From NCBI RefSeq assembly GCF_000372725.1, contig NW_005202428.1:1845331-1909330 (forward strand): DNA of 64,000 nucleotides, read 5' to 3'. This DNA comes from Emiliania huxleyi CCMP1516. Its lineage: Eukaryota. Below are positions 14,501-63,568 of the stretch, piece by piece; positions within the stretch are counted from its first letter, which is position 1; the number at the start of each line of letters is the position of its first letter. A program made the position numbers and the translations under genes. Below the pieces are notes generated by a model. It was not told where the DNA came from. It saw only the letters and a program-made list of their open reading frames with translations, and made no database searches.

Positions 14501-17500
14501 CGGCGGCGGAGGAGGCGCCGCCCTCGCCCTCGGGGAGCAGCGCGCGGGACCACTGCGCCTAAAGAAATAGGGCGCGAGTCGTACACGGGGAGGGCGTGAG
14601 AGAGCGCAGCGCGCGAGCTCACCGAGACGCCCGCGGCCTTGGCGGCGGCGGCGGCGCACGCGCCGAGCCGCGGCACGTGGACGGCGCGCAGCAGTGCGCC
14701 CAGCCGGAGCGGGTCGGCCTGCAGGGAGGGGAGCGCCGGCAGGGGCGGGACCGAAGCGACGTACGCGTCTAACGCGGACCACTGCTCGCGCAGCGCCGCC
14801 GCCGCCGCCTGCCGCACGAGCCGCGAGATGCCGCCGAGATGCGACCGAGATGCCGCCGAGATGCGACCGAAGTGCGACCGAGATGCGGCCGAGAGATGCC
14901 GCCGAGATGCGACCGAAGTGTGACGGAGGTGTGGCCGAGAATGCCGCCGCCGCCTGCAGCTCGAGTCTCGCCTCGACAAGCCGCCACTCCGCCTCTGTCG
15001 CCGGGGGTCGGCCTCCGACCTGCACGTGCTCCAGCTCGGCGGCGAGCGTCTGGGACGGGCCTCCCTTGGCCGAGCGCCGGAGCCGGTCGAGCATCGATCG
15101 CTTGTGCGGGTGGGCGTGCCACCGCACCTCGAGCGAGATGCAGCCGAGATTCAGGGACAGCCGAGGGGCAGCCGAGGGGCAGCCGAGGTGCAGCCGAAGT
15201 GGCGCGCCTCGAGCGCCACCTCCGAATCGTCCAGCAACGAGGCGGCGTCAGTCACGCCGCCCTCACTCCGCGCGAGGCCTCCTCCTCCTCCTCCTCCTCC
15301 TCCTCCTCCGCGCGTGAGCATGCGGAGCAGCACCTCGGGCACTGTGACCCCCTCCGACGCGTCCACCGTCGCCGCGAGGGTGGAGACGAGGGAGGCGAGC
15401 TGCGCCGCCGACTCGAGCGTCTGGCGCGCCTGAAAAAGAAAACGCGGGCCCGTGCACTCTTCTTTTCTAGGTGCCGCCGCCTCGGGCGTCCGGCGCGCCG
15501 CGGCGTTGTCCGCGTGGCGCAGCATGCTAAGCAGCCACTTCCCGTCGTCCGGCGGCGGGCGGCCATCGGCGGGCGGCGCGGCGGAGACGGCGGCGATACG
15601 CGCCTCGAGGTCGGCGAGCGACACGCGCAGCTCGACTAGCCTCGAGCGGAGGGAGCGCGCCTCCGGGAGCGCCGCGATCTGCGGCACCTCGCCGCGCACC
15701 TAGAAAGGGTCCTAGAGGGTCCCTGGAGGGTCCCCGGAGCAGCGATCTGAGGCACCTCGCCGCGCACCGCCGCGCGCTCGATCTCGGCGCGGCGGCGGAG
15801 GCCGCGCGCGACCTCGTGCAGCCGCGAGGGGGAGAGGACCTCGAGTGCGGGCGAGCCTCCGCGCAACGCCTCGCCCCACAGCAGCGCCTCGCCGCTCGCC
15901 GCCCGCTCGGCGCGGATCTGCGCGAGGAGCGACTCCTGCGGCGGCGGCCGCCTCGCGTCGAGCCGCACGCCGCGGAGAAAGTAGGCGCGGCTGCGGGGCG
16001 CGTCGAGCGGGGCATGCCGCGCGTCCGCCTCGAGCGCCGCCGACACCGCCTCGGCCAGCTGCGTCGTCGTCGCCGCCTCAGGCTGGCTGAGGGAGAGCTC
16101 GGAGACCACCTCGCGGTGGAGGCTCAAGCCGGAGAGCGGACCCTCCCGCCCGTCGCCTCCGCCGCCGCCCGGCCCGCCTGCAGCCTGCGGGGGACATGTC
16201 GCGGACGTGTCAGGCGACATGTCGTGGGCATGCGCTGTCCCCCTCGCGCGCCCCGCCCGCCGCCTCGTGCGCGCGGGCAGCCTCGCCCGCACTCCCCTGC
16301 CGCGGAAAGTGCGGCGAGGCCCACCGCTCCTCGTCGTGACGCATCGACTCGAGCTCGGCAGAGAGAGACGCGACCTGTCACTCGTACCCAACTCTACTTC
16401 CAACGAACGATCCAACCACTTCCTTCAGAGAGAGAGACGCGACCTGCCGCCGCAGCCGAGCCGTCGCCGAGGCGAGCGCCGACGGCTGCGCCGCGGCGAC
16501 ATTGTCCGCCAAGTTCTCGACCGCGGCCTCGAGCCGCCGGAAGGAGGACGCGTCGGCAGAGCCGAGCGAGACGCACAGCTCGCGCACGCCTGCGGGCAGC
16601 TTCTGGCGCAGCACCTCCAGCGCCGGCTCGCCCTTTGAGGTGACGAGCACGCGCCGGCCCGTCGCGAGGTAGTGGCAAATCACGTTCGCGATCGTCTGCG
16701 ACTTGCCTGTCCCCGGGGGCCCGACCAGCACTGCGCAGCCCTTCTCCTCGAGCGTAGCCACCACCGCCTCCTGCTGCGCGTTGGACGGCAGCCCGAAGTA
16801 CAGAAACGGCCGCTGCTCGATGCCGCCGCCGCCGCCGCCTCCGCCGAGAGGCGTCGAGATTGCGCGGCGAAGGCGGGAGAAGATCGGCCACCGGTCCTCG
16901 GCGGCGGCGCCGGGCAGCGGCGGGGCGGGCGGGAGGCCGTACACGCCGACGAGCCGGCCCAAGGCGGCGGGGAGCGCCGCGGGCGGCAGAGCGCGGAGGG
17001 CGTCAGCGAGGGCGGTGGCGTCGTCGGCTACGCCGCGGTCCTGCGTCACGAACGCACCAGAGTCAGGGCGAAATGCGGCATCGGGCAGTGTACTCGGAGC
17101 AGCGCGTGAACACAGGAGCTACACGTGTAGTGAACACAGCTGACGACAGCCGGACACAGCCGAGAGCGTGTCCCGTGCCCCGCATCTAGGACCGCAGTCC
17201 GCCGCGTCGGCGCGCGTGAAGACGACAAATCCGTTGTACACGCGCGGGGAGGACTCGGGGGCGCCGTGCAGCGCTCCTGCAACCGCACAACGGACGGGGC
17301 GTGTGCGCACGGCGCCGTGCAGTGGACTCGCTCGCATCGCGTGGGCACAAGGGGCGATAGGCAGCTGCGAACGGCACCGCGGCGGCTGCTGCGAGTGTCT
17401 TGTCGCAGCGGCAGCGGCAGCGGTGGGGTGCAGGGGGGGTTCAAGTCCGGGTGGGGGCAGGAGGGTGAGCGTGCAGCAGTCTGCTTCTAGGGCAGCGCTC

Positions 17501-18439
17501 CCTTGGCGGTCGTGCGCGGCGGGCCGTCGACGTAGACGCCGTCGGCCGCGAGTGTCTGCGCCGCGCGCTGCAGAAGCGGCTCCCACGCCCGCCTACCAGG
17601 CGGGACCCGCTGTACTCGACTCGTCTCTCTGCTCACGGCGGGCGGCTGCGAGCTGCGCGCTTTGCGGTCGGCGGCGGCGGAGACGAGCCGAGCAAGCCGT
17701 AGGCGCGCGCGCACTCGTCGAGCAGCTTGAGCGCCGCGGCGACGCGCGGCACCTAGACAGGAAGGGCGTGCGCCCCTAGGGAGCGGAGGCTGTGAACCGG
17801 AGCACCTCTTGCGACGCGCGGCCGCACCCCTGGGAATGTCCACAGGGCGGGGGCGGAGGCGTCGGCCATGCGGACGCAATACGCGCCGGTGGCGTCGAGT
17901 TGCAGCTCCGCCGGCATCATCACCAGCGGGTGGTCAATCACGGTCGACGCGTCCACACGCCAGCGCACGAGGCCGACGCCGACGGTGAGCTGCGCGCCTC
18001 GCCCCTCGCGCAACGCCTCCTGGTGGGAGGAGAAGAGGGAGGCGTAGGCCGCACACGCCGCCTGGGCGGCCGGCGAGCGGTCGTCGTGGTCCGGCCGATG
18101 CAGCGACACCCAGCCATGCCGGGACGGCTCGGCAGCCGCGGGCACGTCATCCTCATCCGCCATCATCGCGACGACAGGCCGCTGCGCCTTGAGCTGCTTG
18201 CCGGTGGTGGGGTCGCGCGATGCGACGGTCCGCTTCGCCTCCTTCAGCTTGTCCAGGAAGCCCTCGTGCAGCATCACTCCGATGTCGTCACCAGCAGCCT
18301 TTGCGGCATCAGCAGGGCCGCGCAAGGCCAGGCGCGGCTCGAGGTCGCGGCGCGAGACCTCGTTGAGCTCCTTGGTGTACTCGACGAGCGCGATCAGCCG
18401 GCGAGCCGCCTCCTCCTGGTCCTGCGCGAGATCGCCCAT
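11555..18439 (-). CDS. Large superfamily-1 (UPF1-like, AAA_11/AAA_12) helicase with C-terminal Vsr/restriction-endonuclease-like domain (multi-exon)
   Basis: Walker A GPPGTGKSQTIAN, FDLVVIDEASQ, VVGDGKQ, QHFRC, FQGDERDVI and YNVALSRARD, followed by a CLDGG...AGWAFHRIWRSSW domain. N-terminus MGDLAQDQEEAARRLIALVEY. Confidence 0.85.
17041..17199 (-). mobile_element. Introner-like intron, family 1 copy A (GA-AG)
   Basis: GACTGCGGT-CCTAGA...GTGACGCAG|GACCGCGGC. Removal restores FTRADAA|DRGVADD. The body is similar to copies D and E. Confidence 0.75.
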
Positions 18440-18877
18440 CCAGGACACGGCTGAGCCAAAGTGGTTTTTCGAACCGCACCGCCCAAAACCTGCTGGAGAG
18501 CTGAATCAGGTTCCGCTGAGCTGCTGTGAGGCTCTAGGACTGCCTCTGCAAGGGGCCCCTCCAATCTCCTGCCCCACCGCTTGGTAGCAGGTAGCATCGA
18601 CGGGTGGCCTTGCCTCCCACATCGATGTGGGCGTAGGGGTTGAGTTGAGTAGTGCGTCATCTTGATTGAGGGAGGGCGCGCCGGTCAGGTTTTGGTTCCA
18701 GAATTTCATCAATGAGTGGAGAGTGCCGCCCAAGCAAGAAGTACACACACCTGGGGTGGGTGGAAAATTCCGAAGAGCGGGCGCGCATGGCACTAACAGC
18801 AGGCCGCTAATATTCTTATTGTTAGAGAACAGAAATTGGCCTACTCGGCCGAACTGCTGCAAAGCTTGCAGGTCCCC

Positions 18878-21364: not shown

Positions 21365-23514
21365 TCATCGCCTGCTCGTGCTGCCGGGCGTGAAGGTTTG
21401 CCGAATCGCGTCGAACCGCGTGATATTCCAGACGTCGGTCTGCGCGACCACGAGCCCCGTCACTGGTGAGACGTCGTACGAGATCTTGCCCGACCACGGA
21501 GAGATCTTTGGCCTCCACGGTAGCTTGAGCTCGCCCGACGCCACGTAAGTTGCCTCGATGGTCGCCCTCCCACTGCCCGCGGCCACCACACGCACGTGCA
21601 CGTTGTCGAGTTGCGACCGCGTGGGCTCAAAGAGGAAGCCCAGCGCCTGGCGGTATCTCGAAAGGCCGTCGACCGCGTTGTTTGGGTCGACAAAGCGGCA
21701 ATCGTCCGCGAAGAGGCTCGACGTCAGGTTGCCCGTCAAAATGTACCTCCCCTCGGAGAGGTCGCGCGCCTATTGGAAGATTCCGAGAAGGCTCCGGGGT
21801 TTCGTCGCCCTGCCCCGCGTCTCCTCTCCGTCGCGCGCCAGGGCGGCGGCGAGGTCGGCGGGTGCGAGCCCGATGCTCTTGGGCGCGGGATCGGCGGGTG
21901 CGCCGCCCCAGAGGAAGCCCCACTCGAACGGGCTGCGCCACGGCGCTCCCTCGCTCGGGTCCTGCAGCAGCGGCCAGTCGAGCTCCTCCCAGTCGGCGGT
22001 GAACTGGAACCAGAGGGCGGGCGTGCGGGCGAACTGGCGCAGCGTAAAGCGAGGAGCCTGCGAGACGCGTGGTGGCGCGTGAGGCAAGGCGAGCAGAGGT
22101 GAGGCGGCACCGCGGCCGCCTCTCGGCCGCACTTCGGGCCGCACCTCGGCCGCACCTCGGCCGCATCATCTCGCCCCGCCTCTCGACTACGGCCTCACGG
22201 AAATGAAGGGGAAGAACTCCTCGGCGACCGGGTCGCCCTGCCACGGCTCACCCCGCACCGCCGCCCAATGCCTCGCCAAGAAGTGCACCTGCCGCAGCCA
22301 GCACGGTGGGACGCGGCCGAGAGAGCCGAGAGAGCGCGGCCGAGAGAGCTGGCCGAAATGCCTGCCGCAGCCCGACGACCACGTCGAGCGGCGGCGGCAG
22401 CAGCGCCCACCACGCGTAGACTGGGAGGGTGGGAGGGAGGCAGCGGTGGAGACGACGCGGCGATGGGGGCGTAAGCAGTGGAGAGAGGCGGCGGGGGCGG
22501 AGGAGGGAGGCAGAGGTAGCAGTGGGACCTAGCCCCTCCGAGGGGCTAGGTCCCACTGCTGTCGGGAGATCTGACCTGGCGGCTCGAGCAGCGCCTCGTC
22601 CTTCGTCCAGAGCGGCCCGCTCTCCCCGTGCAGCTCGTTCACGCGGCGGTAGAGGTTGACCTGTGTCGCGGACGCGCCGTCAAAGCGCTGTCAAAGCACC
22701 GAGCGGCTTAAGCGCTGTCAAAGCAGGATCCAGCACATGGTGTATATGGCGCGGCAAATGCCACAGCAGGAGATACAGCGCGGCACCTGCCCCAGCAGGA
22801 TCCAGAGCGCACCGGCGTCGACCAGCAAGTCGGCGCCCGGCAGGCCGGCGAGCAGCCCTACGCCGCCGATCAGGAAGCTCCATACCTAGTGACATGGAGG
22901 CGCCTGGCTGTGATTGCCATGCGACGTCCGAGCGGCATGAGCCGCCTCCCACCGCCGCCGGCGAATACTCGCAGAGTGTGCAGACGCATCTAGGCGGCCC
23001 AACGAACGGGAAGAGCGTGCCGTAGCCACCGCAGCCAGTGGCGCGGCCGGAGCGGCGGAGCTCGTCGTGGAAGAGCTCCTGTGCACGACGCAGGAGGAGG
23101 TCTCTGGTGAGCGAGGCGAGCGGCAGAGGACGCGCGTGTCTCGCAAGTGCCACTCGCCTCCTCGACGGAAAACTTGTAGTACCCATACCAGCCCAGCGCT
23201 GTCGGCACGGACGCTGCGATGACGAGCCACACTGGCCGGGACAGCCCGGGCGTGCACGGTGGAGAGGTCAGCCGCTCCCACAGCGCTCGCCGCACTTCGG
23301 CGCTCTGCAGCGCATCGGAGGCGCACGGAAGAAGTGGTTGTGGACCGTCCTCCTCGCGAAGGCGGACATACTCGGCCACGGCCGGGATGAAGTTTGTCCG
23401 TGCGAAGAGGCCGTTGGCACCGCGGCAGAGTCGGTCGATGTAGTCAGAGCCCTTCGGAGGCGGGTAGCTGCCTATACGGGTAGCTGCAGCTATCGTCGCC
23501 TCGCCTTCCGACGC
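21365..23514 (-). CDS. Membrane protein of unknown function with C-terminal SnoaL/NTF2-like (DUF2358-like) domain (multi-exon; 5' end not resolved)
   Basis: Exons read GWYGYYKFSVEE|ELF..GCGGYGTLFPFV, WILLGQ|VNLYRRVNEL and AWWALLPPPLDVVVGLRQ|VHFLA, then TGNLTSSLFADDCRFVDP...LKLPWRP...QTDVW. Confidence 0.6.
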
Positions 23515-25230: not shown

Positions 25231-26730
25231 TCACGCCTTGCCGACGGTCGCGACGAGCTTGCTCCACAGCCGGGCAGCCTGCCCCTGGAGCGTCACAGCA
25301 AAGCCGGGGCCGTTGCTGGCGTTGAGCATGTAGTCGCGACAGGTGAAGAACATAGCTCGCGTCGCCTGCGTCTTGGTGAAGACGTCGGCGATCATATAAG
25401 CAGTGCCGACGAGGTACGGCGCGACGTGGCGGAGCATGAAGAGGCGCTTGACAAACATGGTGGCACGTTCGTAGTAGCGCGTGCGAGCAGTAGAGCCGGG
25501 CTTGACGATGATGTCAAAGACGGCTTTGCAGTCACCGAGCTGGGGCGTGGGTCCTGCGACAGCTCGGCCAGCGTCCTCGAGCATGAGCCGGCAGGAGACG
25601 ACTTTCTTGGCGGCGACGGAGGCGGTGGCGGTCTCCTCTTCGGCGACGCTGAGAGCCTCGATCTTGGACTTGTTGGCGCTCCAGTCGATGGCGCCGTTGT
25701 TGAACATCACGACGCATCCGCCGTAGTGTGGCGCCTTGCCGAAGGAGGCGTCATGGTAGGCGTGGAGGCCACGAGACTCGATGAAGCCTGGCGGGAAAGT
25801 GTCGAGTCCGTAGGGGATCTTGAGCTTTCCGCCGTAGGTGATGCCGAGGTGCTTTGTGGCGTTGAGATAGTTGATGACGGTCATGATGGCGTCACGATGG
25901 ACGGCGCCGCAAGCCTGAGAGAAAGAGCCGAGCTTCGAGAAGAAGTACTTGATGTCGGGGCGCGTCATCTCGGCAGGCCACCCGATGGTTCCTAGCGGCT
26001 TCAGGAACTCGGTGACGGGGATGCGGTCGCACTCGGCAGCAGGCTCGAGCTTATCGAAGAGGGCGCGCTGGACGTCGGTCGAGCCGGCTGGGGTGGACTG
26101 AGCACGAGCGCCAATCTCGTTGCCGTAGAGGGCGGCAATCCGCTCGATGTACCGGGTCTGCCGAATAGTGAGCGTGCGGTTGGCTCGGTCGCGGAGTACC
26201 TCGATTCCGGTGAAGACGGAGATGGGGACGATATCGAGCGTCGCAATCTTGATGTACGTTCCATATTCCTCTTTGAACCGGACGTACTGGTCGGTGGCGG
26301 AAGCGGCAAAGCCGTTTGCGACGTCGTCTGCAAAAACAACGATGATTAGGCGAAAGGCTGGGTGGCTGTAGAAGTTTGGCTCGGTGAGCGAGGCGACGCA
26401 GCCAAGCTTGACGAGGGCGTCCTGGTTGAGTTTGAACCAAAGGTAGGAGCCCTGTTTGATGCCCTCGAGCGCTTTGAGAAGCATGAGCACAAAGCCCTTC
26501 TTGACGAACCCGGGTGGCATCTGGGTGTAGATCTCGGCATCGACGTCAGCCTGAGTAAACGCCTTGACGCCGTCGGCCGTGTCAGTCTCGAGGTCTTCGT
26601 CAGCGACTATGGCACACCATAGGCGGAAGGCTGTTGCGCTCAGAGTGCGCGCAAAACACTCGTGGTACTCCTTGCCTTCACGTTGTCCAAAGCCTTTCCC
26701 AACGAGACGAGCCTTGACCTTCGCTCTTGT
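25231..26730 (-). mobile_element. Ty1/Copia retrotransposon remnant: reverse transcriptase + RNase H
   Basis: KARLVGKGFGQ, DGVKAF, EIYTQMPPGF, LLKALEGIKQG, FADD and TRPDI; RNase H YHDASF, EEET, LGDCKA and ADVFTK. No gag, protease or integrase. Confidence 0.92.
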
Positions 26731-26764
26731 CTCGTGGCGTCTCTGCGGCTCCGCGGCCGAGCAG

Positions 26765-29302
26765 ATGGTGAGGTTGCTCTGCGTGGCGTCTCTGCTCGGG
26801 TACGCCAGCGCTGGGTGGACGGGAGCCCTCGGCTTGACGTTCGAGTCGAACAAGCCCGTCGAGGCCAAGTCGCTCTTCTGCCCGAGCGGCTTCATCACTG
26901 GCATCCGCGTCAAGTACGGCCGCACGAGGGACGAAGATAGGGACTTGTACGACTTCAAGCTCAAGTGCGGCCAGCGCTGGACGAGCTGGTCGGGGCTGTG
27001 GTTCAAGAACGAGTTGGAGGACAAGACGTACGAGTGCCCGGCAAAGATGTACGTCACGGGGATCGAGGTGTGCTAGCTGTGAGATGCCCTGCGGCCGCCG
27101 CCGCTCAAGGCTTCGCCCCGGCTCGGCCGTCGTCGCTGCCCGCCGCCGTCGCGTGCCGCCGCTGCTAGTCGCTCGGTTGGTCGGGACACCGACACACCAC
27201 ACCAAAAGCCGCTAGCATTGAGTCTTTGAGTCCGCCGGCTTGGCTGCTGCACAGGTCAAGCGGGGGCGGCGTGAGTGGGGCGACAAGGACACGTACGACT
27301 TCAAGCTGCAGTGCTCGGGCGTGTGGCAGGACTTCATGGGCATGAAGTTCGGGGGGCAGCAGGAGCAGGCGGGCACCGAGTGCCCCAGCGGCGAGGGCAC
27401 CTCGGGGCTCAAGGTGATGCTTCTAGAGAGGAGAGAGGCGGCGAGTGGGCGGCCGAAACGCCCCTCCAGGCGGAGAGACCCAGCAGTGGGCAACCCGACA
27501 CCACCACCTTCCGGCGACGCACCCGCCTCGCCGCCGCCTTCACCGCCCACGCCACCGCCGCCCTCGCCGCCGCCCTCGCCGCCGCCCTCGCCGCCGCCAC
27601 CCTCGCCGCCGCCGCCGCCGCCGCCGCCCTCGCCGCGGCCGCCCTCTCCTCCGCCCCCACTGCCTGCCTCTGCCCCTCACCTCACGCCAGCGCTCCAATG
27701 CCGGGCGGCCGCACCGATGGCCGTCCGGTCAAAAGCGAACTGTACTCTCTGGCACACCACTGCCCGCGGGTTAGCTGGCGACCTCCGCCCCTGCACTGCG
27801 GAGCTCCCTTACCGACCCGCCGACACTGGCTCCCCCCCCCCCCCCCCAAGGACACCCCTCCACGGCGCTATTCGCCTCCCTCACTCACACACACCTCCCG
27901 CGCACTGCTCCACCCCTCAACACGCCCTGCACGCCCACTGTGTCCGTGTGCGGTCCTCGCCCATAGGTGTTTCGCGGCTTTGTCGACTGGGGCGACAAGG
28001 ACCTGTACGAGGTGACTTCCGAGACCCCCCCCCCCACACACACACCGCACACGCACACACACTTGCCTAGCCAGTACCCGGCGCTCGCTCGCTGCCTCTG
28101 CTGCCGCCGACGCGCCCCTCGCGTGCCTTGCCCGCCTCACCTCAACCCCCCCCCCCCCCGCCCCCGCCAGTTCGAGCTCAACTGCAAGTCGATCGCGGCC
28201 AACTTGGCGTCGATCCGCGGCCTGCCCGATCTCAAGATGCTGGGGCTGCAGCGAAACGTGCGCTCCCACCTGCAGCTCCGCTCCGCCACCGCCACATGCC
28301 AGCCTGCCTGCGGCAGCGGCCAGCGACCATACCGGGGACCAGCGGGGGCCGCAGCGCCGGAAAGGTCGCGCGGCTCAGCCGGCATCCATCGCGCCACGTT
28401 AGCGGCGGGGGGAGGCCGCTGCGAGGGCGGGGCGTTCGGGGGCGGGGGGAGGGGCGTTTGCGCACACGCAGTCCTTGACACTCACGCTGGCGCGCGGCGG
28501 TGTGCATGAGTGCCGCCCCGACGCCGCTTCCCAGGTGCTGGTGTGGGACGGGGAGCAGCTCGGCGCGTGGCTAGAGGCGCTCGGGTTGGGCGACCTCGCC
28601 CCCTCCTTCCTCCACCACAACGTCAACGGCGGCACCGTCTTCTTGCTGACCGAGGAACACTTGCGCGACCTCGGCTTCAGCGTCGTCGGCGACCGGCTCT
28701 ACTTTATCGAGCTGCTCACCCAGCTGTGCGGGATAGCCGAGACGCCCCGCCACGGGCCGAGACGAGCCGGAGACGAGATGAGCGAGCCCGCCTCTCCGCG
28801 TGACGGCGGTGCACATGGCACAGGTACGACGACATCGTCGCGTGGTCGAGCAAGATCGGCGTGCAGCTCGCGACGCACCCGGTGCCGCCGCTTCGGCAGA
28901 TCGGCCTCACGCTGCAGCCGACGACGTGGAGCGTCAAGGACGTGTGCAAGGTGCTCAAGGCTGTGGGGCTCGAGGCGAGCGCCGCCCGCCCGCACGTCCG
29001 CCACCCCACCGCCCAAGCCATCCCACCGCCCAAGCCATCCCACCGCCCAAGCCACCCCGAGCCCTCGACATCCGCGCCACGCCGCCGCGGCGCAGGAGTA
29101 CGTTGAGCTGTTCGTCGAGCACCGGATCCAGGGCGACGTGCTGTTCAACCTGACCGAGGAGAACCTCAAGGAGATGGGCATCGAGAAGATTGGCGACCGC
29201 CTCCTCATCACCGACATCGTCCAGACGCTCTACGAGCAGGTGACGGGGTGGCAGCAGCAGCAAGTCAACCCGCAGTCCCTGCTGCAGCTGGGCGCGGCCT
29301 GA
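26765..29302 (+). CDS. Signal-peptide protein with three Cys-containing repeats (VMO-I/beta-prism-I-like) and two SAM domains (multi-exon)
   Basis: MVRLLCVASLLGYASA; 3x CP...(I/V)TG(I/L).V..G....D.D.Y(D/E)F.L.C; SAM-like W....LGAWLEALGL...LTEEHLRDLGF..VGDR and WSVKDVCKVLKAVGL...LTEENLKEMGIEKIGDR. Confidence 0.75.
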
Positions 29303-32135: not shown

Positions 32136-40212
<8,077 letters not shown>

Positions 40213-48665: not shown

Positions 48666-48739
48666 AGACTGCCAGCGACAAGCTGGAGGCAGGTCGCTAG
48701 ACTGAGATGAGACCGCCAGTGGATGTGGGAGTCCACCGC

Positions 48740-50838: not shown

Positions 50839-52359
50839 ATCGGGTCTTTCACACGGCTGGTGGGAGAGGGATCGCGACCTGCAGCACCGGCACGAACGAG
50901 TGCTGCGAGGGCAAACTACTTCTTCGTGCGTCCTGGTAAAATAACGCTTTGCGCTCCAAGTGCTCCTCAGCGGAGCTGGGAATAGGACCGCCGCAAGCGG
51001 CGTGGCGTGGAGCGGTTGAGCATCCCTCCGGGGGCCCCTCTGCGCCGGGGAGGCGTTGTTGGAGGCTAGGACGCAAGCGCCCGTCGCCCTTTTCAATCAA
51101 ACTCGGGGCCCACTCACTCCGTCCGCTGTATGTATGTATATACGCTCCGACCCGAATTTGGAGGGCCTAAAAGTTTAAGGTGTTGCTGCGCAAAAGGGGT
51201 CGGACACAGGGCGCAGCTCATGCTAAGAGCCAAATAGGGGAGCTAGACAGAACGACTACCCTGTCCCGTTATTGCGTACACCAACACCACAAAAGCTCTC
51301 TCTCTCCTGTCCTCACTCAGGGGGTCACAACTACCGAGTCCCTCGACTAGCTCGTAGCTGCCACGTTGCCCCGACCGAGAGCGGATCTCCTCCTGCATCG
51401 CAAGGAGGGTGGCCAAGGCTAAAGTCTTGCCGGAGCCGCCGGGTTGACGCTTGGAGAAGGTCGCCCTTGCACTTGTACTTGTAGAGATGCTCGAGGGGGT
51501 GCTTTGTGGGGCGGTGCGCAGCCAGGCCAGCAGTGAGGGGAGGCGCACCCTCACTCTCCTCGGTCGCAGAGCTCGTCGGAGGCTGCGGCACGACGGGAGG
51601 GTCGCGACAGCAGTCCTCGGGCGAGCCGACGCGCATGTCCAACCAGCGCTGGGACTCGTTGTGACGGCAGACGCCGGCTGCCTCTCCAACCGCTTCTGCA
51701 GCGTCCTTCTTTGCCCGGTGCATGGGCTCGATCCGATTCCGCAGCGTGTCGGTCCCCAGCGGCGGTGCTGCGCGGGAGGCGGCCGCGAGCACGCTGGGCT
51801 CGATCAGCGGCTTTCCCTCAGTTGCGCCGAAAGCGCGGATTTGGCGGACGTTCTTGGTTTCAATTTTACGGATGTCTGTTCACCAGCTGAAGCGTGAAGG
51901 CTTGCACCCGTCCACGGCCGACATCGTCGGATTTGCGCACGGTATTCGGATTTTCTATTTGCTCGTGTGGGGGTTTATCCGAGATTTGTCAATGGCACAT
52001 GCACATGCACATGCACATGTCCATGTATGTTGTACATGTACCGCGTCTGCGTGCAACGCGGGCGCCTTGCGGGCAGAGCCCACCCTTTTGCCTTTTTTTT
52101 GCGCGGTCAAAATTGGAAACCCCACGACACGGTGACATAGTGACAGGAGCAGCACCAGCCGCAGAGGCGCCTAACAGCCCCGGTCGCGCAAAACCGGAGG
52201 ACCCCCTCCGCAGAGAGAGAAGGAGCGAAAAAGCCAGGCAGCGCGCCCGAAAAAGAAAACGCGGGAGGCGGCGCCCAGCGGCAGCGCCGAGGGGGCGCGA
52301 AGCGTGGACGAGGGCAGAGGTTGCCGCCCTCCCGATCCGCGCAAAAAAGAGAAGGGTGT

Positions 52360-52529
52360 GGGAGGCGGTCGGCTCGGACCTACTCGACGGATACTTCCTG
52401 CGCATAGGCGCATAGCAACGGAGGACATTCAAAAAGACTACTGGCGCCTGCTGACAGACACAGAAGCGTATCCGCGGGAATGGAATGACTGGATTGCGAT
52501 GCTAGCGATGAAGCCGGGGGAGGACCCGA
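52360..52529 (+). mobile_element. Short fragment resembling the N-terminal RT region of a non-LTR (LINE) retrotransposon
   Basis: After removing an 8-nt duplication (GCGCATAG) it reads AVGSDLLDGYFLRIATEDIQKDYWRLL...YPREWNDWIAMLAMKPGEDP, like the LINE pattern KA.G.D...P..W.....I.KPGKDP. Confidence 0.45.
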
Positions 52530-52799
52530 ATCAAGCTGCTGTACGACGGCCCCGGCATCGCCTTCCCAGGCTTAGCTAGACTGACTGAGAGATATTGTGC
52601 ACATGGTTGGTCTCTACAATATATACACTGACACTGAACCTCCCAGAGCTCGTCCCGGTCCGTCACGGCCATCCTCGGCCTCCGGAGGGCCCCCGGCCGC
52701 GGCGCGGTGCGGCGGCGTCACAAATCCGACCACAGTGCACAGAGCAACCGGGACGCGGTCGGGCGATCCGAGGGCGAGGCCCAACAGGCGTATGCATTG
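52530..52799 (+). repeat. Dispersed ~250-bp repeat, copy 2
   Basis: Direct copy of 20278-20527 with small insertions. Confidence 0.9.
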
Positions 52800-52977
52800 T
52801 CTATCCACCTATCAACAGGCGCCTGCGGCACCGTGCTCAGGAGCTGCTGCTCCAACCTGTCCACACTTTCGTACAGCTAAGTACTCGAGTTTGAGAGCGT
52901 GCAAGAAGAAAGAAAAACGCCGGGCCCCTGCTCTCCCTGCCCTGGGGCGCGAACTCCAAAGGCACCCGCCGTTGCCG

Positions 52978-54817
52978 ATGGAGGCGTTCGCATTCGACGG
53001 CGGCAGGTCGCGAGCGGCGCGCACGGCGGCGGTGCCGCCCGCCGCCTCGCTGCCGTCGCCTCGCCGCGAGGCCGCCCCCGCCGCCGCCGCCGTCGCCACC
53101 GCCCCCGCCGCCGCAGCCGCCGCTGCGACTGCAGCCGCGCCCGCGGCCGATGGCGCCTCGAAGATCCGCCAAATGGGCGGGAACGCCGCGCTGCGGATCT
53201 GCTCCGACCAGGTGGTCGTCGACCTGCGCTCGGCGCTCAAGGAGCTCGTTGAGAACGCCCTCGATGCGGGGGCGACAAAGCTGGAGGTGCGCCTCAAGGA
53301 GCACGGCGCCGAGATGCTGGAGGTGACCGACAACGGGCGCGGCATCTCGTGCGAGAACCTGGACGGGGTGGCCCGCCGCCACCACACCTCCAAGCTGCGC
53401 GAGTTTGACGACCTCGGCCGCCTGCGATCCTTTGGCTTTCGCGGCGAGGCCCTCTCGTCGCTCGCGGCGCTCTCGAGCCTCTCCGTCGCCACGCGGACCG
53501 AAGACGACGCGGTCGGCACCTCGCTCTCGTTTGGTCGGGACGGCGAGATCAGCGCGAGGTCGAAGGTGGCGCGCGACGTCGGCACGACGGTCTGCGTCGC
53601 CCGCCTCTTTGAGCCCTTTGCTGTCCGGCGGCGCGAGGCGAGCGGGGACCTGCCACGCGCACAGAGAGACCTACACGCACGGACACGCACGCGCAGACGC
53701 GCGCAGACAACGACGTACTCGCCCCTCCCCACACCACACACACTTCTCGTGGGACGGCTGCTTGTTCACACCCCTCCTGTTTTGCATTCACAGCTCGTGC
53801 GGACGGCGCAGCTCGAGATGCGGAAGATGCTCGCGGCACTGCAGGCCTCCCTCCCTCCCTCCCTCCCTCCCTCCCTCCCTCCCTCCCTCCCTCCCTCCCT
53901 CCCTCCCTCCCTCCCTCTACCACTCACTCACTCACTCACTCGGAGGATGCTCGCGGCCCTGCAGGCGTACGCGCTCGTCTGCACGGCTGTCCGCTTCTCG
54001 TGCGTCAGCCTCTCGGCGAAGACGGGCCGCCAGTCGCTGCTGCAGACCGAGGGCGGAGCCGCGGGGATGCGAGNNNNNNNNNNNNNNNNNNNNNNNNNNN
54101 NNNNNNNNNNNNNNNNNNNNNNNNNNNNNNNNNNNNNNNNNNNNNNNNNNNNNNNNNNNNNNNNNNNNNNNNNGTGAGCGAGCTCATCCCGCTGAGCGGC
54201 TCGACGGATCGCGTGACCATCCACGGCTTCGTCTCGCGCCCCCGCGCCGGCCACGGGCGCCGCGCCTCCGACCGGCAGTACACCTTTGTTAACAGCCGCC
54301 CCGTCGACTTTCCTCGCCTCGCGCGCGTCGTCAACGACGCGTTTCGCGCCTCGACGGCCAAGTCGGAGTGCTTCCCCTTCCTGCTGCTCAACCTCGAGGC
54401 CGTCGCCCGACGCCGCATCGGCCGTGCAACCAGTCCCTTCTCCTTGATGTCTCCCCTCGCCAACAGGCGCCGCCGGACGCGTACGACGTCAACGTGACGC
54501 CCGACAAGAGGACGGTCTTCTTCGTCGACGAGGTGGACACCCCTCGGCCGCCTCCCGCCCTCCCCCCGACCCAAGTCCCCCTCCGTTCCGATGCACCTCT
54601 CCTGCCTTCTCGCGCACCTCCCTGTCGCCTCCCCACTCTCGCCCGGCGCCTGCCTGCACCCGGCCGCCCTCCCCGCGCCCTCACCCTGGGACCCAGGCGG
54701 CGCTGCTTGGCTGCATCGGAGAGATGGTGGCGAAGCTATTCGCCGCCGAGTCCTGCACTTTCGCCGTCCATACGCCCGACACGCTGCCCCTCGCACCGCG
54801 CCCAGCCGCCGCCGCAG

Positions 54818-54926: not shown

Positions 54927-54959
<33 letters not shown>

Positions 54960-57757
54960 TGACGGCGGTGACGGCAGTGGCGGCGGCCACGCTGGAAGCG
55001 GCTCAGCCGCCGGCGGTGGCCGCAGCGAGGAGGCGGCGTCGCGCTCGGAGGCGCCCCGCGGGACCAAGCGCAGCCGGGCCGTCCCGCACGGGGGAGTGCC
55101 GCGGGAGGGAGCAGCGAAGGCGCGGGCTCTGGCCGGACGGGGGAAGGGGGATGCGGCGGCGGAGTCAGAGACGGAGGAGGAGGAGGAGGAGGCAGAGGTG
55201 GGGCAAGAGGAGCAGCGGTCGCTTCCTCCGCAAGCGACTGCAAAGCGGGTGACGGCGCCGGCGCCGGAGTCCGCCGCAGCGACCGCCGCAGACGTGGCGG
55301 GGGAGGCGGAGGGTGCGGGAGGAGAGGTGGCGGCAGAGGCGGCCGCCGACGCCGTCATGGAGGACGTGGGCCAGCGCGAGGGCGAAGCGGCGGAGGAGGG
55401 CGAGGCGGCGGAGGCGGCGGACGGGGACAGCGGCGGCGGCGACGGGCGGGAGGCGGGCGGGCGGGGAGCTTCCTCCAGCGACGCGCCCGGAGGCGGCAGG
55501 TCGATCGCCGACGGGCCAGGCAGTGGGGGTGCGGGCACTGCGGGGGCGCCGGACGGCTCTCGCCCGTCGCGCAGGGAAGCGTCGCGAAGCAGGTCGCCGT
55601 CAGGGGACTGCTCGGCTGCCCCTGCCCGGCGCTCCCCGCCGCCGGCAACGGCGCTGGCGCCGACAACGGCTCCGGCGCCGCGCGAGCCGAGTACCACCAA
55701 GCCTCGCGCGGAGGGAAGGGGGCGTCGACAGGCGAGGGAGAGGGAGGAGGGGTCGGCGGAGCCGGAGTGCTCAGAGGCAGCGCCGGAGGCGGGGGCGGCG
55801 GCGGACGAAGAGGCGGCGCCAGAGACGGACGGGTTGCTCGAAGCTTCGCTGGTCGAGGCGCTCTTCACGCAGCTGCGCGAGCTGCAAGAGGCGTCCGCCG
55901 AGGAGGAGCGCTCGCCGCTGCAGACGCTGCAGACGGCCTGCACCATCTTTTCGCAGCAGATAGCGGCGTGCGGCTCGGCGGAGCCTCCCGCGGCGGCGGC
56001 AGCGGCGCCGGGGGAGGGCGCTGATGAGGGGGGCGTCGTGCCAACCGTGGTGAGGTGCGCGTCGCGCTACATCAAGGGCTGGCTGAGCCGTCACGGCGGC
56101 GACGAGGCGACGGTCTATGAGCCGGAGATTGAGGCGCCCCTCGCGGCTTGCGGCTTCGACTGGCAGCGCGAGGCGTTCGAGACGCCTCCGGACGCCGCCG
56201 CGGTGAGCGACGCCTTCGCAGACCTCGCCCGCACGCTGCTCTCGCGGGTCCCGGCGCCGCCGGCGGAGGGAGCCGCGCCCCAGCCCGCTGGCACCGGCCG
56301 CTTTGGCGGCCGAGGCGCCGCCGGGCGTGGCAGGCGCCGCCCGCCCGCCCCTCCCGCTCCCGCCGCCCGGCCGGCGGCGGCGGCCGACGCGGAGACGGCC
56401 TTGCCGCCGCTCTCGATCGCGCGTGACATTGGCGTCGCTTTCGACATGGAGTCCTTCAGCGCGCAGTATGCGCTCGCTTGCTGTGCCGCCGGCGGCGGAG
56501 GCGACGCGGCGGGTGCGGGTGCGAGCCTCGGCCCCGGCGGGCGGCTCGACTCTGGCCCGGCTGGCGGCGCGAGCCCGAGCGTGCCGAGCTCGAGCGTGCC
56601 GAGCTCGAGCGTGCCGAGCGCAGGGAGCCTCGAGGCCGCGACCCGGGCGGCGGGCCGCGCGGCGGCGGAGAGCGAGGTGGAGGGCGAGCTGCGCCGCGTG
56701 CTGCCGAAGGCTGACTTTCGCACGATGGAGGCCGCGAGCCAGCAGAGAGTCGCAGAGAGTCGCAGAGAGTCGCAGAAGTCCGTGCGAGGGCTCTTGCTCC
56801 ACTTCCAAGCGCTTCCCACAGCCTGCCAACCTCCCCCTCCCCAAAACCCACCCACTCGCCGCCACCACCGCCACCACCACCCACAGCCTGACCCCCACCC
56901 CCCGCCAATCGCAGGTGCTCGGCCAGTTCAACTTGGGCTTCCTGATCACGCGCCGCGGCGACGACCTCTTCATCGTCGGCCAGCCTAGACCTTTGCATTC
57001 CGACGGGCACTCGAGACGACACGTACTCGTACTCTCGGTCGTATTCGTAGCCCCATCACTCACGCGATGCTCCGAGTGCACTGCACGGGACCGTGTTCGC
57101 GCCCCGACTCTGGCGCGTTCATGACGCAGGTCGACCAGCACGCCGCCGACGAGAAGTTCCGGTTCGAGAACCTGCAGCGCTCGACCAAGCTGCACACGCA
57201 GCGGCTCATCCGGCCGCTGCCTCTCCACCTTACCGCCGTGGACGAGCTCACGGTACGAGATCGCCCGAGATCGCCCGAGATCGCCGATGACGAGCTCGCG
57301 GCGCCCGCGCCAGCCCCCCCCCCCCCCTCCCCCTTTCCCTCAGGTGATCGAGCACCTGCACATCTTCAAGGACAACGGCTTCGAGGTGCAGGTCGTGCAA
57401 GACGCGCGGCCGACCGAGCGGCTGCGTCTCCTCACCCTCCCCTTCTCCAAGCACACCGTCTTTGGCGTGGCCGACGTGCACGAGCTCATCGCGCTCCTCA
57501 CCGAGGCGCCCGGCGCCCACGCGCGCCTCCCGAAGCTGCGCGACATGTTCGCCTCGCGCGCCTGCCGCGGCGCCGTCATGATTGGCACCGCGCTCGAGCC
57601 GCAACGGATGCGCACCATCGTCTCCAACCTCGCCGGCCTCGACCAGCCGTGGAACTGCCCGCACGGGCGGCCCACGCTGCGCCACCTGATCGACCTGTCA
57701 AGCCTGGGTGGCACGGCCGCGGCGAGGTCGTTCCGCTCTTTCGAGCCAACAGGTTAG
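52978..57757 (+). CDS. PMS2: Mismatch-repair endonuclease PMS2 (yeast/plant PMS1), MutL family (multi-exon, spans a gap)
   Basis: KELVENALDAGA, DNGRGI, HHTSKL and SFGFRGEALSSL; C-terminal GQFNLGF, DQHAADEK, ASRACR and WNCPHGRP. Confidence 0.93.
54074..54173. other. Assembly gap (100 N)
   Basis: Run of N. Confidence 1.
56975..57129 (+). mobile_element. Introner-like intron, family 1 copy D (GT-AG)
   Basis: GTCGGCCAG-CCTAGA...ATGACGCAG|GTCGACCAG. Removal restores the conserved DLFI|VDQHA. Confidence 0.82.
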
Positions 57758-57831: not shown

Positions 57832-57937
57832 AGAGTAATGGAAATCTCTGCGCAAGACCAGTAGATCGTTGGGGTAGAGATAGTAGAGTAATGGAAATCT
57901 CTGCGCAAGACCAGTAGATCGTTGGGGTAGAGATAGT
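57832..57937 (+). repeat. Tandem repeat, 2 x 53 bp
   Basis: AGAGTAATGGAAATCTCTGCGCAAGACCAGTAGATCGTTGGGGTAGAGATAGT occurs twice. Confidence 0.95.
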
Positions 57938-58246
57938 AGATTAAGACTGGAGATCCTAGCGGATCTCTCACACGGACACGCCCAAGTCTCGCCAGTAGAT
58001 CCGTCCTGTCCGGTTCCCCATTCAAGACTAAAGATCGAAGATTGAGATTGTGGATTGCAGATCGCTCTGAGCAGCAACAGGGCCAAAATGTGGAGATAGG
58101 AGATGGAGAATGCAGATTGTAGATCCTAGCGCCCAGCCATCCGCCCCAGATGTGAGATCGAAGATTGAAAATGGAGGTCGTAGATTGCTGCCGGCGGCGA
58201 CAGTGGCCAAGTAGAAGATTGGAGATTGGAGATGAGAGATGGTCAG

Positions 58247-59741
58247 TGTGAATGAATCCAAATTGCATCTCCTTGAAGGTTTGAGCCCCCCTCCTCCCCC
58301 CGGGCCCCCGAATCGAGATTGGAGATTGGAGATTGGAGATTGAGATCGGAGATCTGATCCGGCCTAAGATGACGACGTTGGAGATTGGAGATTGAAGATG
58401 GAGATCGGAGATCTGACTGGATCCCCGGCCTAAGATGACGACGCTGTGGATTAGAGAATATTGGAGATGGGGAGATCGGAGCCCACCCACCCCCTAGAGC
58501 CTAGTGGTGTTGATAGATGTTTTATAGATTTTTGTTTTTTCCTGTGGTCTGTGCGCGGACGGCCCGGGGAGCCTGCGGCGCCATTTTAATCTGCGCTCCT
58601 CTTTATGGCCTGCGGCGCCTGGCTTGAGCTTGGAAGTGTAAACGAGTCCGCCAGGGCGGTCTGCAAACGGAGCGCGCTGCGCGCGCGGTCTATGTACGCG
58701 GCCTATGCCGCACTAGACCATTTGCCCAGTTGGCACCCTGAACCCTGATTCCGCCCCCCGTTCGCCGTCCAAACCTTCGCACCACCTCCCCTTCTCGGTT
58801 CTCTGTCACCTATCCCTCCCCTCCCACTCTCTTTCCCCCCTTCCTTACCTTCCCTTCCATCCCCCATCTTCATTCCTTCCTCTCCTTCTTCTTACCTTCC
58901 CTCCTCCCCCACCTCTCCACCTTCGTCTCTTCTCCTCTCTCCCCCCCCTCTCTTTCACCTTTCCCTTNNNNNNNNNNNNNNNNNNNNNNNNNNNNNNNNN
59001 NNNNNNNNNNNNNNNNNNNNNNNNNNNNNNNNNNNNNNNNNNNNNNNNNNNNNNNNNNNNNNNNNNNTGCTGTCTGGCCAGTGGGTGGTCGCGTCCTCCT
59101 GGCTCCGCGCTTCCTCGGCGCGGCCCGGCTGGGTGGCGGAGGAGGAGCACGAGGTACGGGCCTCTCGGCTAGCCTCGGCTAGCTTCGGCCTCACTTCGCC
59201 TAGCCTCGGCCAGCCTCGGGCTCACCTCGGGCTCTTCTCGCGAGGTGCACGGCGACAACTCGTCCATCTCCGCCGTCAGCGGCCTCGGCGCCGGAGGCCC
59301 TCGCAGGGGAAGGCGAGAGGCAGCCGAGAGGCAGCCGAGAGGCAGCCGAGGCACCGGAGGCCCCCCCTGGGGAATACCCCCAGGGGAAGAGGATGCCAGC
59401 GAGGGGGCGGCGCCACGCCGCTCTGTTCTTGCCGTCCGCGCACAGACCTTTATCTAAAAACAAAACAAAAAAATCGATGAGACACCACTAGGGGCTGGGG
59501 GGCTCCGATCTCCATCTCTCCAGTACTCTCCAATCTCCAGCGTCGCTATATCTTAGGCCGGATCCAGTCAGATCTCCGATCTCCATCTTCAATCTCCAAT
59601 CTCCAACGTCGTCATCTTAGGCCGGATTCAGTCAGATCTCCGATCTCCATCTCCAATCTCCAATCTCCACTGTCGATTCGGGGGCCCGGGGGAGGAGGGG
59701 GGCTCAAACCTTCAAGGAGATGCGCTATGGACTCATTCACA
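58247..59741. repeat. Large inverted repeat of GGAGATT-rich element (arms ~58247-58563 and ~59431-59741)
   Basis: The arms align as reverse complements over ~310 bp; the spacer contains a pyrimidine tract and a gap. Confidence 0.85.
58968..59067. other. Assembly gap (100 N)
   Basis: Run of N. Confidence 1.
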
Positions 59742-60621
59742 ATGCAAAAGGATCTCCACCCTCTTTTCGCGCCATTTTGCAATCTCCAGTCGGCCCACAC
59801 GATCTCTAGGCGCCTTTGGCGCGAAGTCAGAATCTCCACCTCTGTTGCAAGATCTCAAGCGACTGCACGCACCAAACGCGAGATCTCAGACTCCTCTCGA
59901 GCTTGGCCTAAGCACAATATTCTCGAATATCTCCGAGAATATAGATGGTCCCGCGCACTTTCGTATTCGAGAATATTCTCGAGAATATAGATGCCCCGGC
60001 GCGGCTTTTTCTCAAGAATCTATGAGTTTTCTTCAGCCCTTGACCTTGGTTGACCTCGAGTCTCAAGATATTCTTGAATATTCTCGCCGTTACATCGCGG
60101 CGTCTAGAACGGTCTTGACTAGAGCTTCTCGAAACAGCTCTTTTGCCCCCTCAAAAGTAGGTTTTGGGTCGATGCAGACGGAAATCTTTAAGTTTTGGAC
60201 GTTCCTGAGCGGTTTGGGAGCACAAACCTCTACTTTAGAGCGATTTTTGGCGTCCGCTGACCTCTCGCGTGGTGAAAATATTCTCAATATTCGAGAATAT
60301 TCTCGAGAATATAGATGGTCTGGCGAGAATATAAGCAAAAGAATATAGATAGTACTTGGCGAGAAAAACGTGCTTAGGCTAATCTCGATCGAGCATCTAC
60401 ACCGGAGAAGATTTGCCTCCAGCAGTTCTTCAATCTACTGCAGCTCTTGGCAGGAGATTTGCCACTTAAGAGATCTCTAAAAGGCATCTACGATCTACAG
60501 TCCAAGGATCTTCCGATGTTGCGCAGAGATTTCCATGTATGTGTCCAAAAAAGAAAAACTCGGCCATCAGCCCAAGATGCGCTGATTGCGAAGTGAAGGG
60601 CGACTGTCTCGCTACTAGCTG

Positions 60622-63568
60622 ATGGTCCTCATCCCTACCAGCCGCTCCACGCACTCTCCGCCGCCCGCCCGCCCTCCCGTCCGCCGGCCCGTCTCCCACC
60701 TCGACCTCGAGCCGCCTGAGCCGCGCCCCGCCGAGGACGAGTGCGAGGTGGTCCCAGAGGAGCCGCTGCTCGTCTCACAGCTGCGCTGCGAGCTGCGCTG
60801 CTGGGAGCGCGGCGTGGGATTCCGGCGGCGTCTCTTCGGGCGGCAGATTCGCAACACCGTGCGCCGGCTCCCCGACTGGTTTGTCGCCCTCGCGATCACG
60901 ACGCACCTGCTGGTCGTCCCGGTTGCCATCCGCGGCGTCGAGCTGCTGAAGCCGACGGTCGAGGTGCGGCTGGCGGACCGCGCGGTCCGCGACGTCCGGC
61001 AGAGCACCTTTGAGGCCATCTGGGGGCTCGTCGAGGCGATGCACTACTCCCCGACCTCGGCTTCGGGAGATGAGAGGTGGGAGAGGTGGGGGGACCGGCT
61101 CGGGGAGGCGATCGGCGGGGAGGAGCCTTCGATGCGGTCGGCGGTGCGGTCGGAGGTTGCCTTCGGCTCGCTCGCCTCGAGGCTCCTCACCGCGCTCGAC
61201 GACCCGTATTCGCTCTACGCCGGCCCCGACACGCTCGCCGCGCTACCGCCCGCACTGCCCGCTCGAAGCAGCGCTTCGCTGCCCGCGGGGCTGTCGGTGA
61301 GGCCGCACTCGGCGGATGGAGCGGGCGAGCGGCTGTACGCAGTGGGCCACTATAGTGGGTCTCTTCACCACGCGCCTCCTCCCCCCTCGACTCCTCCCCC
61401 CTCGCGGGAGGCGGCCTCCGCCGTCCTGNNNNNNNNNNNNNNNNNNNNNNNNNNNNNNNNNNNNNNNNNNNNNNNNNNNNNNNNNNNNNNNNNNNNNNNN
61501 NNNNNNNNNNNNNNNNNNNNNNNNNNNNGTTGCAACGTCCGAATAGTGGTGTGTCTAAGCTCTGCCGGCAGAGGCGCTGCGCTCGGCCCTCGAGGTGCCT
61601 TGTAGGCGTCAGTAGAGGGGAGAAGGAGCGCTCTCCCTCGGAAGGGAGAGTCCCTCGGGAGAGGTCGCGCGAGCCGCGCGGCGTGCGCGTGCCGGCTGGA
61701 GCGACAGCCGGGGCACTCCCCCGCAACTGTGATTCCGTCATGGAGACGCGCCGGCGCCCTGCCCCTCTGCAACAGTCAGCTGCGAGCCGGTCGCCTCAGG
61801 CATATACAGATATCGCACCCGCCGGACGCGTCCTCTCGTGCAGGTGCGCGCCTCGGGCAGCGAGCTGCGGCTGCTGCGAGAGCGGGACGCCGCCGCCTCC
61901 TCCTCCTCCTCCTCCTCCTCCGCCTCCTCCGCCTCCTCCGCCTCCTCCTCGAGTGCCGAGTGGGTCTCTCTGCGCCACCCGTCAGCCGGCGAGGAGGCGG
62001 GGGAGGAGGCGGCGGCGGGGTGGGTCCGCTCGCGTGCGCTCGGCGGCGGGCGCGCTCCTAGCCACATCTCTCCAGCCACCGGCTAGCATCCGTGGGGGCC
62101 CTCTCACCCGCCGTCGGAGCAGGCCGAGGGGCGAGGGGCGAGGGGTGGGACACACGAGGTGGGCGACGTGCAGGTCCGCCCCCTCCGGCCGGCTCACCCC
62201 ACTCCTCGACTCACCACGCAGGCGCGTGGGCTACGTCAGGATCGGCCAGTTCACAGAGCGAGGCACCGCCGAGCTCACCGCCGAGTTGCAGCGCTTGCGA
62301 TCGTCGGGTGCACGACTCTTCCCGCCTCGACACCCCTCCCCAGCAGACGCGCCGCTCATCCACACCTCCCCCGCCCGCCGACGCGTCCATGACACGTCCA
62401 CGACGTGCGCCCCTCAGGGGCCGACCGCCTCGTCCTCGACTTGCGCAACAATCCCGGTGCGCTTGCCCTGCCCCTGCCCCCTTCTCCGCCTCGGAAGCCG
62501 TCTTCCGACCGGTCCCCAACCCCCTCCCCCCCGGCGCATGCAGGCGGGCAAGTCACCGAGGCGCTCGCGCAGGCGTCGCTGCTGCTGCTCGACTCGGACG
62601 CGGGCGCCGACGCGACGGTCGCGTACACAGTCGACGCGGCCGGTCGCGTCGAGAGGCACAGTGTCTGGCGCCGTGCTCCGTGCCGAGACCCTTCCCTGAA
62701 GCCGACCGCAACCTCCCTGCAGGCACACCGCGGGCGCCATCCTGCACGCTGCCGCCAACGACGCCGCCGCAGACGGGCGCGCGATTGCTGACGGGCGCGC
62801 GGCTGCCGACGCGGCTGCCGACGCGGCTGCCGACGCGGCTGCCGACGCGGCGGGCGACCGCGGCGGTGCGGTGGGCGACGCGGAGGCGACCCTGTTTGGG
62901 GCGCCACTCGTCGTGTTGATTGACCGCGGGAGAGCAGAGCCTAGATGCGGAAGACATCTCTTCGCGTTCGAGCTAGCGCTCAAGCCGACACGGATCCGGC
63001 TCCTTTCCACTCTATGCTCGAGCCGAATTCAGCTGTATCTGTAGCGCCTCGTATTCACGCAGTGCTCCGAGTCCACTGGACGAGGCCGTACTCCCGCCCC
63101 GGCGCTGGTCTGTTGATGGGCTCTGGCCTGTTCGTGCCGTAGGACAGCGAGCGCGGCGGAGCTCTTCGCCGCAGCGCTGCATGACAACGGGCGCGTGATG
63201 TGTCGTCGGGGAGGCCGCGTGTCTGGAGCCGTGCCCGAGCCTCGCCGGAGCCTCTCTGTAGGCGCGGCGTGCTCGTTGGGGAGCACACCTTCGGCAAGGG
63301 GCTCATCCAGCGCGTCTTTCCGATGCCAAACGGCGGCGCGCTCAAGCTGACCGTCGGCGAGTACATGCGCCCCACTCTGGCGCCGATCGAGCCGGGCGTG
63401 GGACTCGAGCCCGACCTGCCCTGCCTCGACACCCCACGCGGCGCCGCGGAGCCGGTCGATGCTTGCGTTGATATGGCGGTGAGCGTGGTTCGGGGACGCG
63501 CCCTAAAGGCGGTGCGGCCGCTGGCGAGGCTCCCGCTGCTCAGGACGGTGCGGCCGCTCGCCGAGTAG
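60622..63568 (+). CDS. ctpA: C-terminal processing peptidase, S41 family (multi-exon, spans a gap)
   Basis: LDDPYS, VGYVRIGQF, LVLDLRNNPG, PLVVLIDRG|TASAAE (catalytic Ser), TFGKGLIQ (Lys) and GLEPD. Confidence 0.88.
61429..61528. other. Assembly gap (100 N)
   Basis: Run of N. Confidence 1.
62930..63142 (+). mobile_element. Introner-like intron, family 1 copy E (GA-AG)
   Basis: GAGAGCAGAG-CCTAGA...GTGCCGTAG|GACAGCGAG. Removal restores the catalytic motif DRG|TASAAE. Confidence 0.78.

Follow-up and report, generated by a model that had tools for sequence, protein, structure and literature searches.

Introners that Huff et al. reportedly described in 2016 from Aureococcus anophagefferens have inverted ends, carry one splice site and obtain the other from the target duplication. 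In the preprint account of Polarella glacialis, the class 1 element in its alternative orientation ends in TAGG, classes 6, 8 and 10 make 8-nt GHN6 duplications, and GA donors are given as common in recent intron gains of Symbiodinium (Roy et al., bioRxiv 10.1101/2020.10.14.339549). For Emiliania huxleyi itself, Table S6 of an earlier survey lists five introner families of 37 or 70 nt, with no GA donors and with duplications scored '?' or 'N' (Gozashti 2022; PMC9860276), and file 8 of a later study gives three short families, one of them noted with '10bp terminal direct repeats' (Gozashti 2025; PMC12130899).

The stretch of DNA analysed here (64,000 nucleotides of contig NW_005202428.1 of E. 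huxleyi CCMP1516, positions 1,845,331 to 1,909,330; hereafter the window), one protein of which shares a 90%-identity cluster with E. huxleyi EMIHUDRAFT_194478, contains seven related introns. We consider it probable (ca. 0.8) that all seven introns derive from a single short, non-coding element, which likely invaded E. huxleyi genes long ago by cut-and-paste DNA transposition, i.e., as an introner. An earlier note on this sequence had arrived at an introner interpretation, which is supported by the geometry of the copies, the fixed register of the duplication, the inverted ends and two junctions in RNA. The copies in the window are as follows.

Copy A, 17041-17199, minus strand: intron of 159 nt with a GA donor and a repeat matching at 7/9 positions, in a superfamily-1 helicase gene (AAA_11/AAA_30).
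Copy F, 17277-17500, minus strand: intron of 224 nt with a GA donor, a perfect 9-nt repeat and a diverged body, in the helicase gene also hosting A.
Copy B, 35457-35575, plus strand: intron of 119 nt with a GC donor, a 9/9 repeat and an internally deleted 3' block, in an SNF2 helicase gene.
Copy C, 38707-38905, plus strand: intron of 199 nt with a GA donor and an 8/9 repeat, in the C-terminal part of the SNF2/MBD gene hosting B.
Copy G, 45915-46071, minus strand: intron of 157 nt with a GC donor and a degenerate 5' end starting with CCCCGA, in a DUF3326 gene.
Copy D, 56975-57129, plus strand: intron of 155 nt with a GT donor and an 8/9 repeat, in a MutL/PMS2-type gene.
Copy E, 62930-63142, plus strand: intron of 213 nt with a GA donor and a 10-nt repeat (1-nt insertion), in an S41 (CtpA-like) protease gene.

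Re-reading of the letters bore out the positions and layout previously claimed for A–E, each of which opens with a copy of the start of the next exon (9 nt, but 10 nt in E), continues with CCTAGA and closes with CGYAG. Their assignment to four host genes also held, B and C sharing one SNF2/MBD gene according to Pfam. All five introns were real, but the count was low: a profile search with A–E, as the note had proposed, returned two overlooked copies in the window (nhmmer; G, E 1.1e-11; F, E 3.6e-4). A layout look-alike at 18422-18549 on the minus strand, with CCTAGA near its start, a CGCAG end and no clear duplication, was dropped because its body is unrelated to all seven copies (z at most 1.4); it is possibly a very decayed copy. 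A near-perfect inverted repeat at 22504-22559 with CCTAG in both arms was also unrelated to the family by profile, and a Copia-type reverse transcriptase lies at 25231-27072 on the minus strand (RVT_2, E 2e-23, Pfam). The helicase gene hosting A and F (13000-18500, minus strand) has homologs in haptophytes, pelagophytes and then bacteria, the nearest named one being that of the haptophyte Prymnesium parvum; many of the bacterial homologs are named very-short-patch-repair endonuclease/AAA proteins. This patchy spread may be a trace of gene transfer.

When the layout was defined strictly (G plus 8 nt, CCTAG, a YAG 90–300 nt further on, and a repeat with at most two mismatches), the window yielded five instances, namely A, B, C, D and F, whereas 200 dinucleotide shuffles of it averaged 0.35 and never exceeded 3. 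The bodies of A–E, claimed earlier to be related, were indeed similar in nine of the ten pairs (z 8.9–26, 200 shuffles), and the low score of the pair A–B (z 2.4) reflects the absence of the 3' block from B and of most of the 5' block from A. In a genome whose genes are rich in introns and repeats, ordinary repeats could have landed in older introns, with the flank match arising by chance. We regard this as extremely unlikely, given that the element meets the acceptor exactly and, with few exceptions, has its start 9 nt from the donor, that the flank match is copy-specific, and that the layout is found well above its chance frequency.

Further copies were obtained with an exact 24-base pattern, which matched 13 marine metagenome stretches: three alleles of window loci, one duplicate and nine new loci. 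The alleles (L004, L007 and L013) and the duplicate (L005, of L010) were set aside as redundant. The nine new loci (33 kb) carry 15 copies, bringing the distinct copies to 22, and four of these lie in the alpha-mannosidase gene (GH38) at L011. Both ends were readable in 20 of the 22, L001 and L008 being too decayed; these two, with their degenerate ends, and L010a, which was added afterwards, were left out of the first end-count. Across all loci, the host genes encode SF1 helicase, SNF2, DUF3326, MutL, S41 protease, GH38, LRR, XRN, CYFIP, FIBP and HA-domain proteins. By the definition of introners as at least four introns that are alike up to near both boundaries and lie in non-paralogous genes (Gozashti et al. 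2022), 20/22 copies show the required similarity and their host genes are non-paralogous.

The consensus element is 181 bp long and non-coding, starts with CCTAGA and ends with YAGG; intron length across the family ranges from 119 to 340 nt. The first 16 bases of the consensus pair at 12/16 positions with the reverse-complemented last 16 (P 3.6e-5), provided that the G following the acceptor AG is counted in; six other registers (offsets -3 to +3) give at most 5/16. Within single copies the inverted ends are weak (4–13 of 17 positions), and the motif forming much of them recurs within the body. GTATTC-like hexamers occur ten times in the consensus, partly 10 bp apart, and might, as a guess, be transposase sites. 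Two copies folded no better than shuffles (z -0.16 and -0.41), and nothing in the window matched Rfam.

At each of the intron positions +2 to +9, the base equals that of the copy's own next exon in 11–15 of 17 copies, versus 0.29–0.43 for cross pairs, and the match is at background from +10 onward. These 17 copies share the 9-nt register; E and L010c, whose repeat is 10 nt, were excluded. Overall, the repeat spans 9 nt (G plus 8) in 18/20 copies and 10 nt in 2/20, and the duplications now carry 0–4 mismatches. In these 20 copies, the acceptor lies at the element's end and the donor 9–10 nt ahead of its start. Because the ends pair only when the final G is counted, the sequences are best read as an element CCTA...YAGG between 8-bp duplications after a target G. 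This reading had been offered as an equivalent one in the note and is favoured by the register of the end pairing. Conceivably, the duplication is instead 9 bp long with a single C left unpaired, which would yield an identical mRNA. The element shares with MITEs a duplication of fixed length and terminal inverted repeats, albeit imperfect. The 8-bp duplication that the inverted ends point to is also a trait of hAT elements. The termini of hAT elements begin with (C/T)A, whereas the element begins with CC, and it was assigned to no superfamily.

A second class of introns, ca. 67–93 nt in length and mostly near 70, opens by repeating 5–30 nt of the next exon, then runs on into simple-repeat filler, and uses GT, GC and GA donors. 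The following examples in the window were picked partly by eye.

34425-34492, plus strand: second-class intron.
36985-37051, plus strand: second-class intron.
38588-38660, plus strand: second-class intron.
15430-15498, minus strand: second-class intron.
15700-15767, minus strand: second-class intron.
16375-16443, minus strand: second-class intron.
21770-21838, minus strand: second-class intron.
46662-46733, minus strand: second-class intron.

In total, 12 candidates of this class were found in the window, against a shuffle mean of 2.5 and a maximum of 8. From their sequences they appear to be introns born by duplication and the addition of filler, and they may in part coincide with the 70-nt families already published for E. 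huxleyi. A further intron of this kind in the metagenome (L011:941-1074, minus strand, approximate) consists of a perfect repeat of ca. 26 nt around pure (TAT)n filler with a TAG end, and is apparently very recent. Because the ca. 70-nt introns also start with an exon copy, such a start alone is no proof of transposition, and the case for transposition rests on the fixed length of the duplication, the shared body and the inverted ends. Duplication plus filler was moreover found at the 5' end of five of the 22 element copies, which suggests a hot spot near donors.

L011:694-917, minus strand: element copy with its 5' end duplicated plus filler.
L006:133-387, minus strand: element copy with its 5' end duplicated plus filler.
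L010:1565-1815, plus strand: element copy with its 5' end duplicated plus filler.
L010:3933-4272, plus strand: element copy with its 5' end duplicated plus filler.
L012:1790-1942, plus strand: element copy with its 5' end duplicated plus filler.

These observations lend some weight to an origin of the whole family in which no transposase took part and the body is repeated filler captured during the repair of staggered breaks, as for the ca. 70-nt introns, many of which occur in this very window. The two classes differ, however, in the decisive features: repeat length is variable and bodies are unrelated among the ca. 70-nt introns, whereas the element family has a fixed register, constant ends, a shared 180-bp body and inverted ends. 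Capture of filler is therefore a very unlikely source of the family, and transposition of a defined element is preferred.

Exact excision is supported by RNA contigs for G and D and by protein alignments for A, F and E. In RNA run X11, one contig passes directly from 45907 to 46065 and leaves out 157 bases, which is the length of G, and DNA run X6 reads through the site. A contig of the same RNA run has 184 letters between its mapped pieces, equal to the sum of the exons without D, where retention of D would give 339. The RNA check that the note had called for, made here with contigs of this one run of one study, thus supports precise removal of a GC-donor (G) and a GT-donor (D) intron, and no GA junction was seen in it. 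Read mapping between 38500 and 58400 was swamped by repeats, and the joint tables displayed none of the introns. Highly repeated DNA with very high contig depth and GGAGATT-type arrays occupies 47100-53100 and 57900-59900.

With F and A removed, the translation aligns without gaps to the homologous protein P0001 over both junctions and agrees closely with other homologs. Likewise, removal of E restores the S41 motif, as had been proposed, with a gap-free match of LIDRG|TASAAELFAAALHDNG to P0123, P0125 and P0127, and translation after removal of B leaves the predicted open frame RLTG|STNR. Removal of C leaves an open frame (YNEG|SLSAV; frame only); a search for homologs of the region after C returned just two MBD-domain matches, which stop short of its junction. 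The protein alignments thus suggest that GA donors are used for splicing in A, E and F.

The donor consists of the target G and the first duplicated base, and the element brings the acceptor, in agreement with the claim that the donor is taken from the target duplication. Among 19 donors, eight are GC, six GA, five GT and none GG. The absence of GG is significant (P 5.7e-4), and the other three track the base composition of exons (chi-square P 0.50). G is found at +5 in 13/19 donors (P 0.0014) and at -1 in 14/19 (P 0.0003), against a background of 0.325, and this enrichment supports a spliceosomal donor at that position. Differences between the intron and exon copies of the repeat (two A to G changes at +5, two from GA to GC or GT, and one in the opposite direction, in C) are too few for a trend.

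For 17 of the 22 copies, Pfam or homologs identify a gene at the locus and the copy shares its strand; the remaining five read as sense-exonic from open frames. No antisense or intergenic copy was found among the 22 in the 64-kb window and the 33 kb of metagenome loci, a small and possibly gene-biased sample. The sense orientation claimed earlier therefore holds; the random orientation and mostly intergenic placement that the note had named as evidence against its interpretation were not observed. MITEs also occur outside exons and in both orientations, a trait that none of the 22 copies shows in this small, possibly gene-biased sample. The absence of antisense and intergenic copies is the chief point against a simple model of an untargeted transposon. 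Such a pattern could also result from an RNA- or transcription-linked route (reverse splicing, or insertion into transcribed exons), in which the sense-exonic placement would be directed rather than filtered by selection. The clustering of copies, four being in the mannosidase gene of L011, two in the helicase gene and two in the SNF2 gene, is in line with this route. However, copies in the same gene are not significantly closer together (P 0.12–0.15), which likewise lends no support to local hopping, and genic copies may be over-sampled by the metagenome contigs and by the search pattern. The fixed 8–9-nt duplication and the inverted ends also do not fit reverse splicing, which is not expected to give either. 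Furthermore, enrichment in genes is general to introners, including those of DNA type, and was given for 161 of 175 genomes in the published survey (Gozashti 2022; PMC9860276). We consequently judge RNA- or transcription-linked spread unlikely and favour a DNA transposon whose surviving copies were filtered by selection.

The family looks old and fixed rather than recent. Mean pairwise identity is 66% (range 47–90%, 19 copies), and copies are 56–87% identical to the consensus. The intron is present in every field allele that the metagenome supplied for A, D, E and F; these differ by 0–1 substitutions and, in A, by one additional 7-base gap (A and F in L013; D identical in L007; E 212/213 in L004), and no empty, intron-free allele was found among them. 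It is this combination of low identity, eroded duplications and near-identical field alleles carrying the introns that indicates an old, apparently fixed family. Homologous proteins, which may derive from DNA or from RNA, run through the insertion sites.

Seven copies in 64 kb would correspond to ca. 18,000 (7,400–38,000) per 168 Mb, in a window that was chosen for its copies, and a rough count from the pattern matches gives 330–830, or somewhat more when the copies that defined the pattern are discounted. The large genome-wide family foreseen in the note is thus borne out as to the existence of many more copies, but its size is uncertain ca. 50-fold; the copy number lies between hundreds and about 10^4, with clustering. 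No transposase or long copy was detected in the Pfam scan of the window (30 of 207 ORFs), and no partner with the same ends in the metagenome loci. Three scans of viral collections gave 0, 4 and 2 matches, all six attributable to chance and without the element body, and two scans of prokaryote genomes gave none.

Taken together, the copies suggest the following course. A transposase encoded elsewhere would make a cut staggered by 8 bases behind a G of the target, and the element would insert between two copies of the 8-bp target sequence. Splicing would then start at the target G, the first duplicated base deciding whether the donor reads GT, GC or GA, and would end at the AG just inside the element's right end. 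The element's last G would replace the G lost to the intron, and because this G and the second target copy remain, the geometry shows that the mRNA equals the sequence before insertion. Survivors would be sense insertions after a G with no G following, G being favoured at -1 and +5, and insertions with GC or GA donors could survive because the host spliceosome tolerates such donors. Thereafter, the family decayed.

In E. huxleyi, 56% of donors have been reported as GC and 4% as GA, one GA donor having been confirmed by Sanger sequencing; this report ascribes the non-GT donors to GC content and describes gene models as under-calling them (Feldmesser 2014; PMC4028052). In the present family, GA donors are over-represented (6/19, compared with 11/241 in a manually curated E. 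huxleyi set; Fisher P 5e-4), and this excess offers a testable origin for donors published as an effect of high GC content. A tentative and rather doubtful extension is that the non-GT majority is largely a fossil of intron invasion rather than a direct effect of GC content on old donors, in which the element and the ca. 70-nt introns would have made thousands of introns, the donor being set by the exon base after G, and would account for much of the GA class. If this were true, the complete absence of copies outside exons would also imply that insertion was aimed at exons. The family adds an introner to a globally important alga and gives a simple rule for mending its gene models. An old, diverged introner of this type is likely missed by surveys built on annotated, near-identical introns, and the 2022 survey describes annotated introns as its starting point (PMC9860276).

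No publication describing a CCTA...YAGG family was found in the literature, where Repbase/Dfam and subscription papers could hold one, and the family is real and apparently uncatalogued. It shares with the catalogued E. huxleyi families the character of gene-enriched, repeated introns of the same species; judged by the published descriptions rather than by sequences, its length of 119–340 nt, its GA donors and its CCTA...YAGG ends fit none of them. The IE1 introner of Micromonas pusilla is also MITE-like and occurs in an alga with many GC donors, but as described its duplication is 3 nt long and it brings its own donor and borrows the acceptor, which is the reverse of the present arrangement (PMC11282704, PMC4815162). 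The ILEs of Symbiodinium are alike in having inverted ends, a carried acceptor and a co-opted donor, whereas their duplication is given as 4 nt (GHNN) instead of 8 nt after G (10.1101/2020.10.14.339549). The closest likeness, drawn by geometry and not by sequence, is to P. glacialis class 1, in whose description the donor is likewise formed by the base before the duplication and the first duplicated base, the acceptor by the second- and third-to-last bases of the element, and GT, GC and GA donors all occur (10.1101/2020.10.14.339549). The P. glacialis families differ in their dinoflagellate host and their youth (terminal branches of 0.9–3.8% in two classes), and several intronize in both orientations, whereas in E. 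huxleyi the copies are diverged and a single orientation was seen. Since the mechanism is already known from dinoflagellates, the surprise is limited, and the value of the E. huxleyi family lies in its host and in the testable link to the non-canonical donors of this alga.
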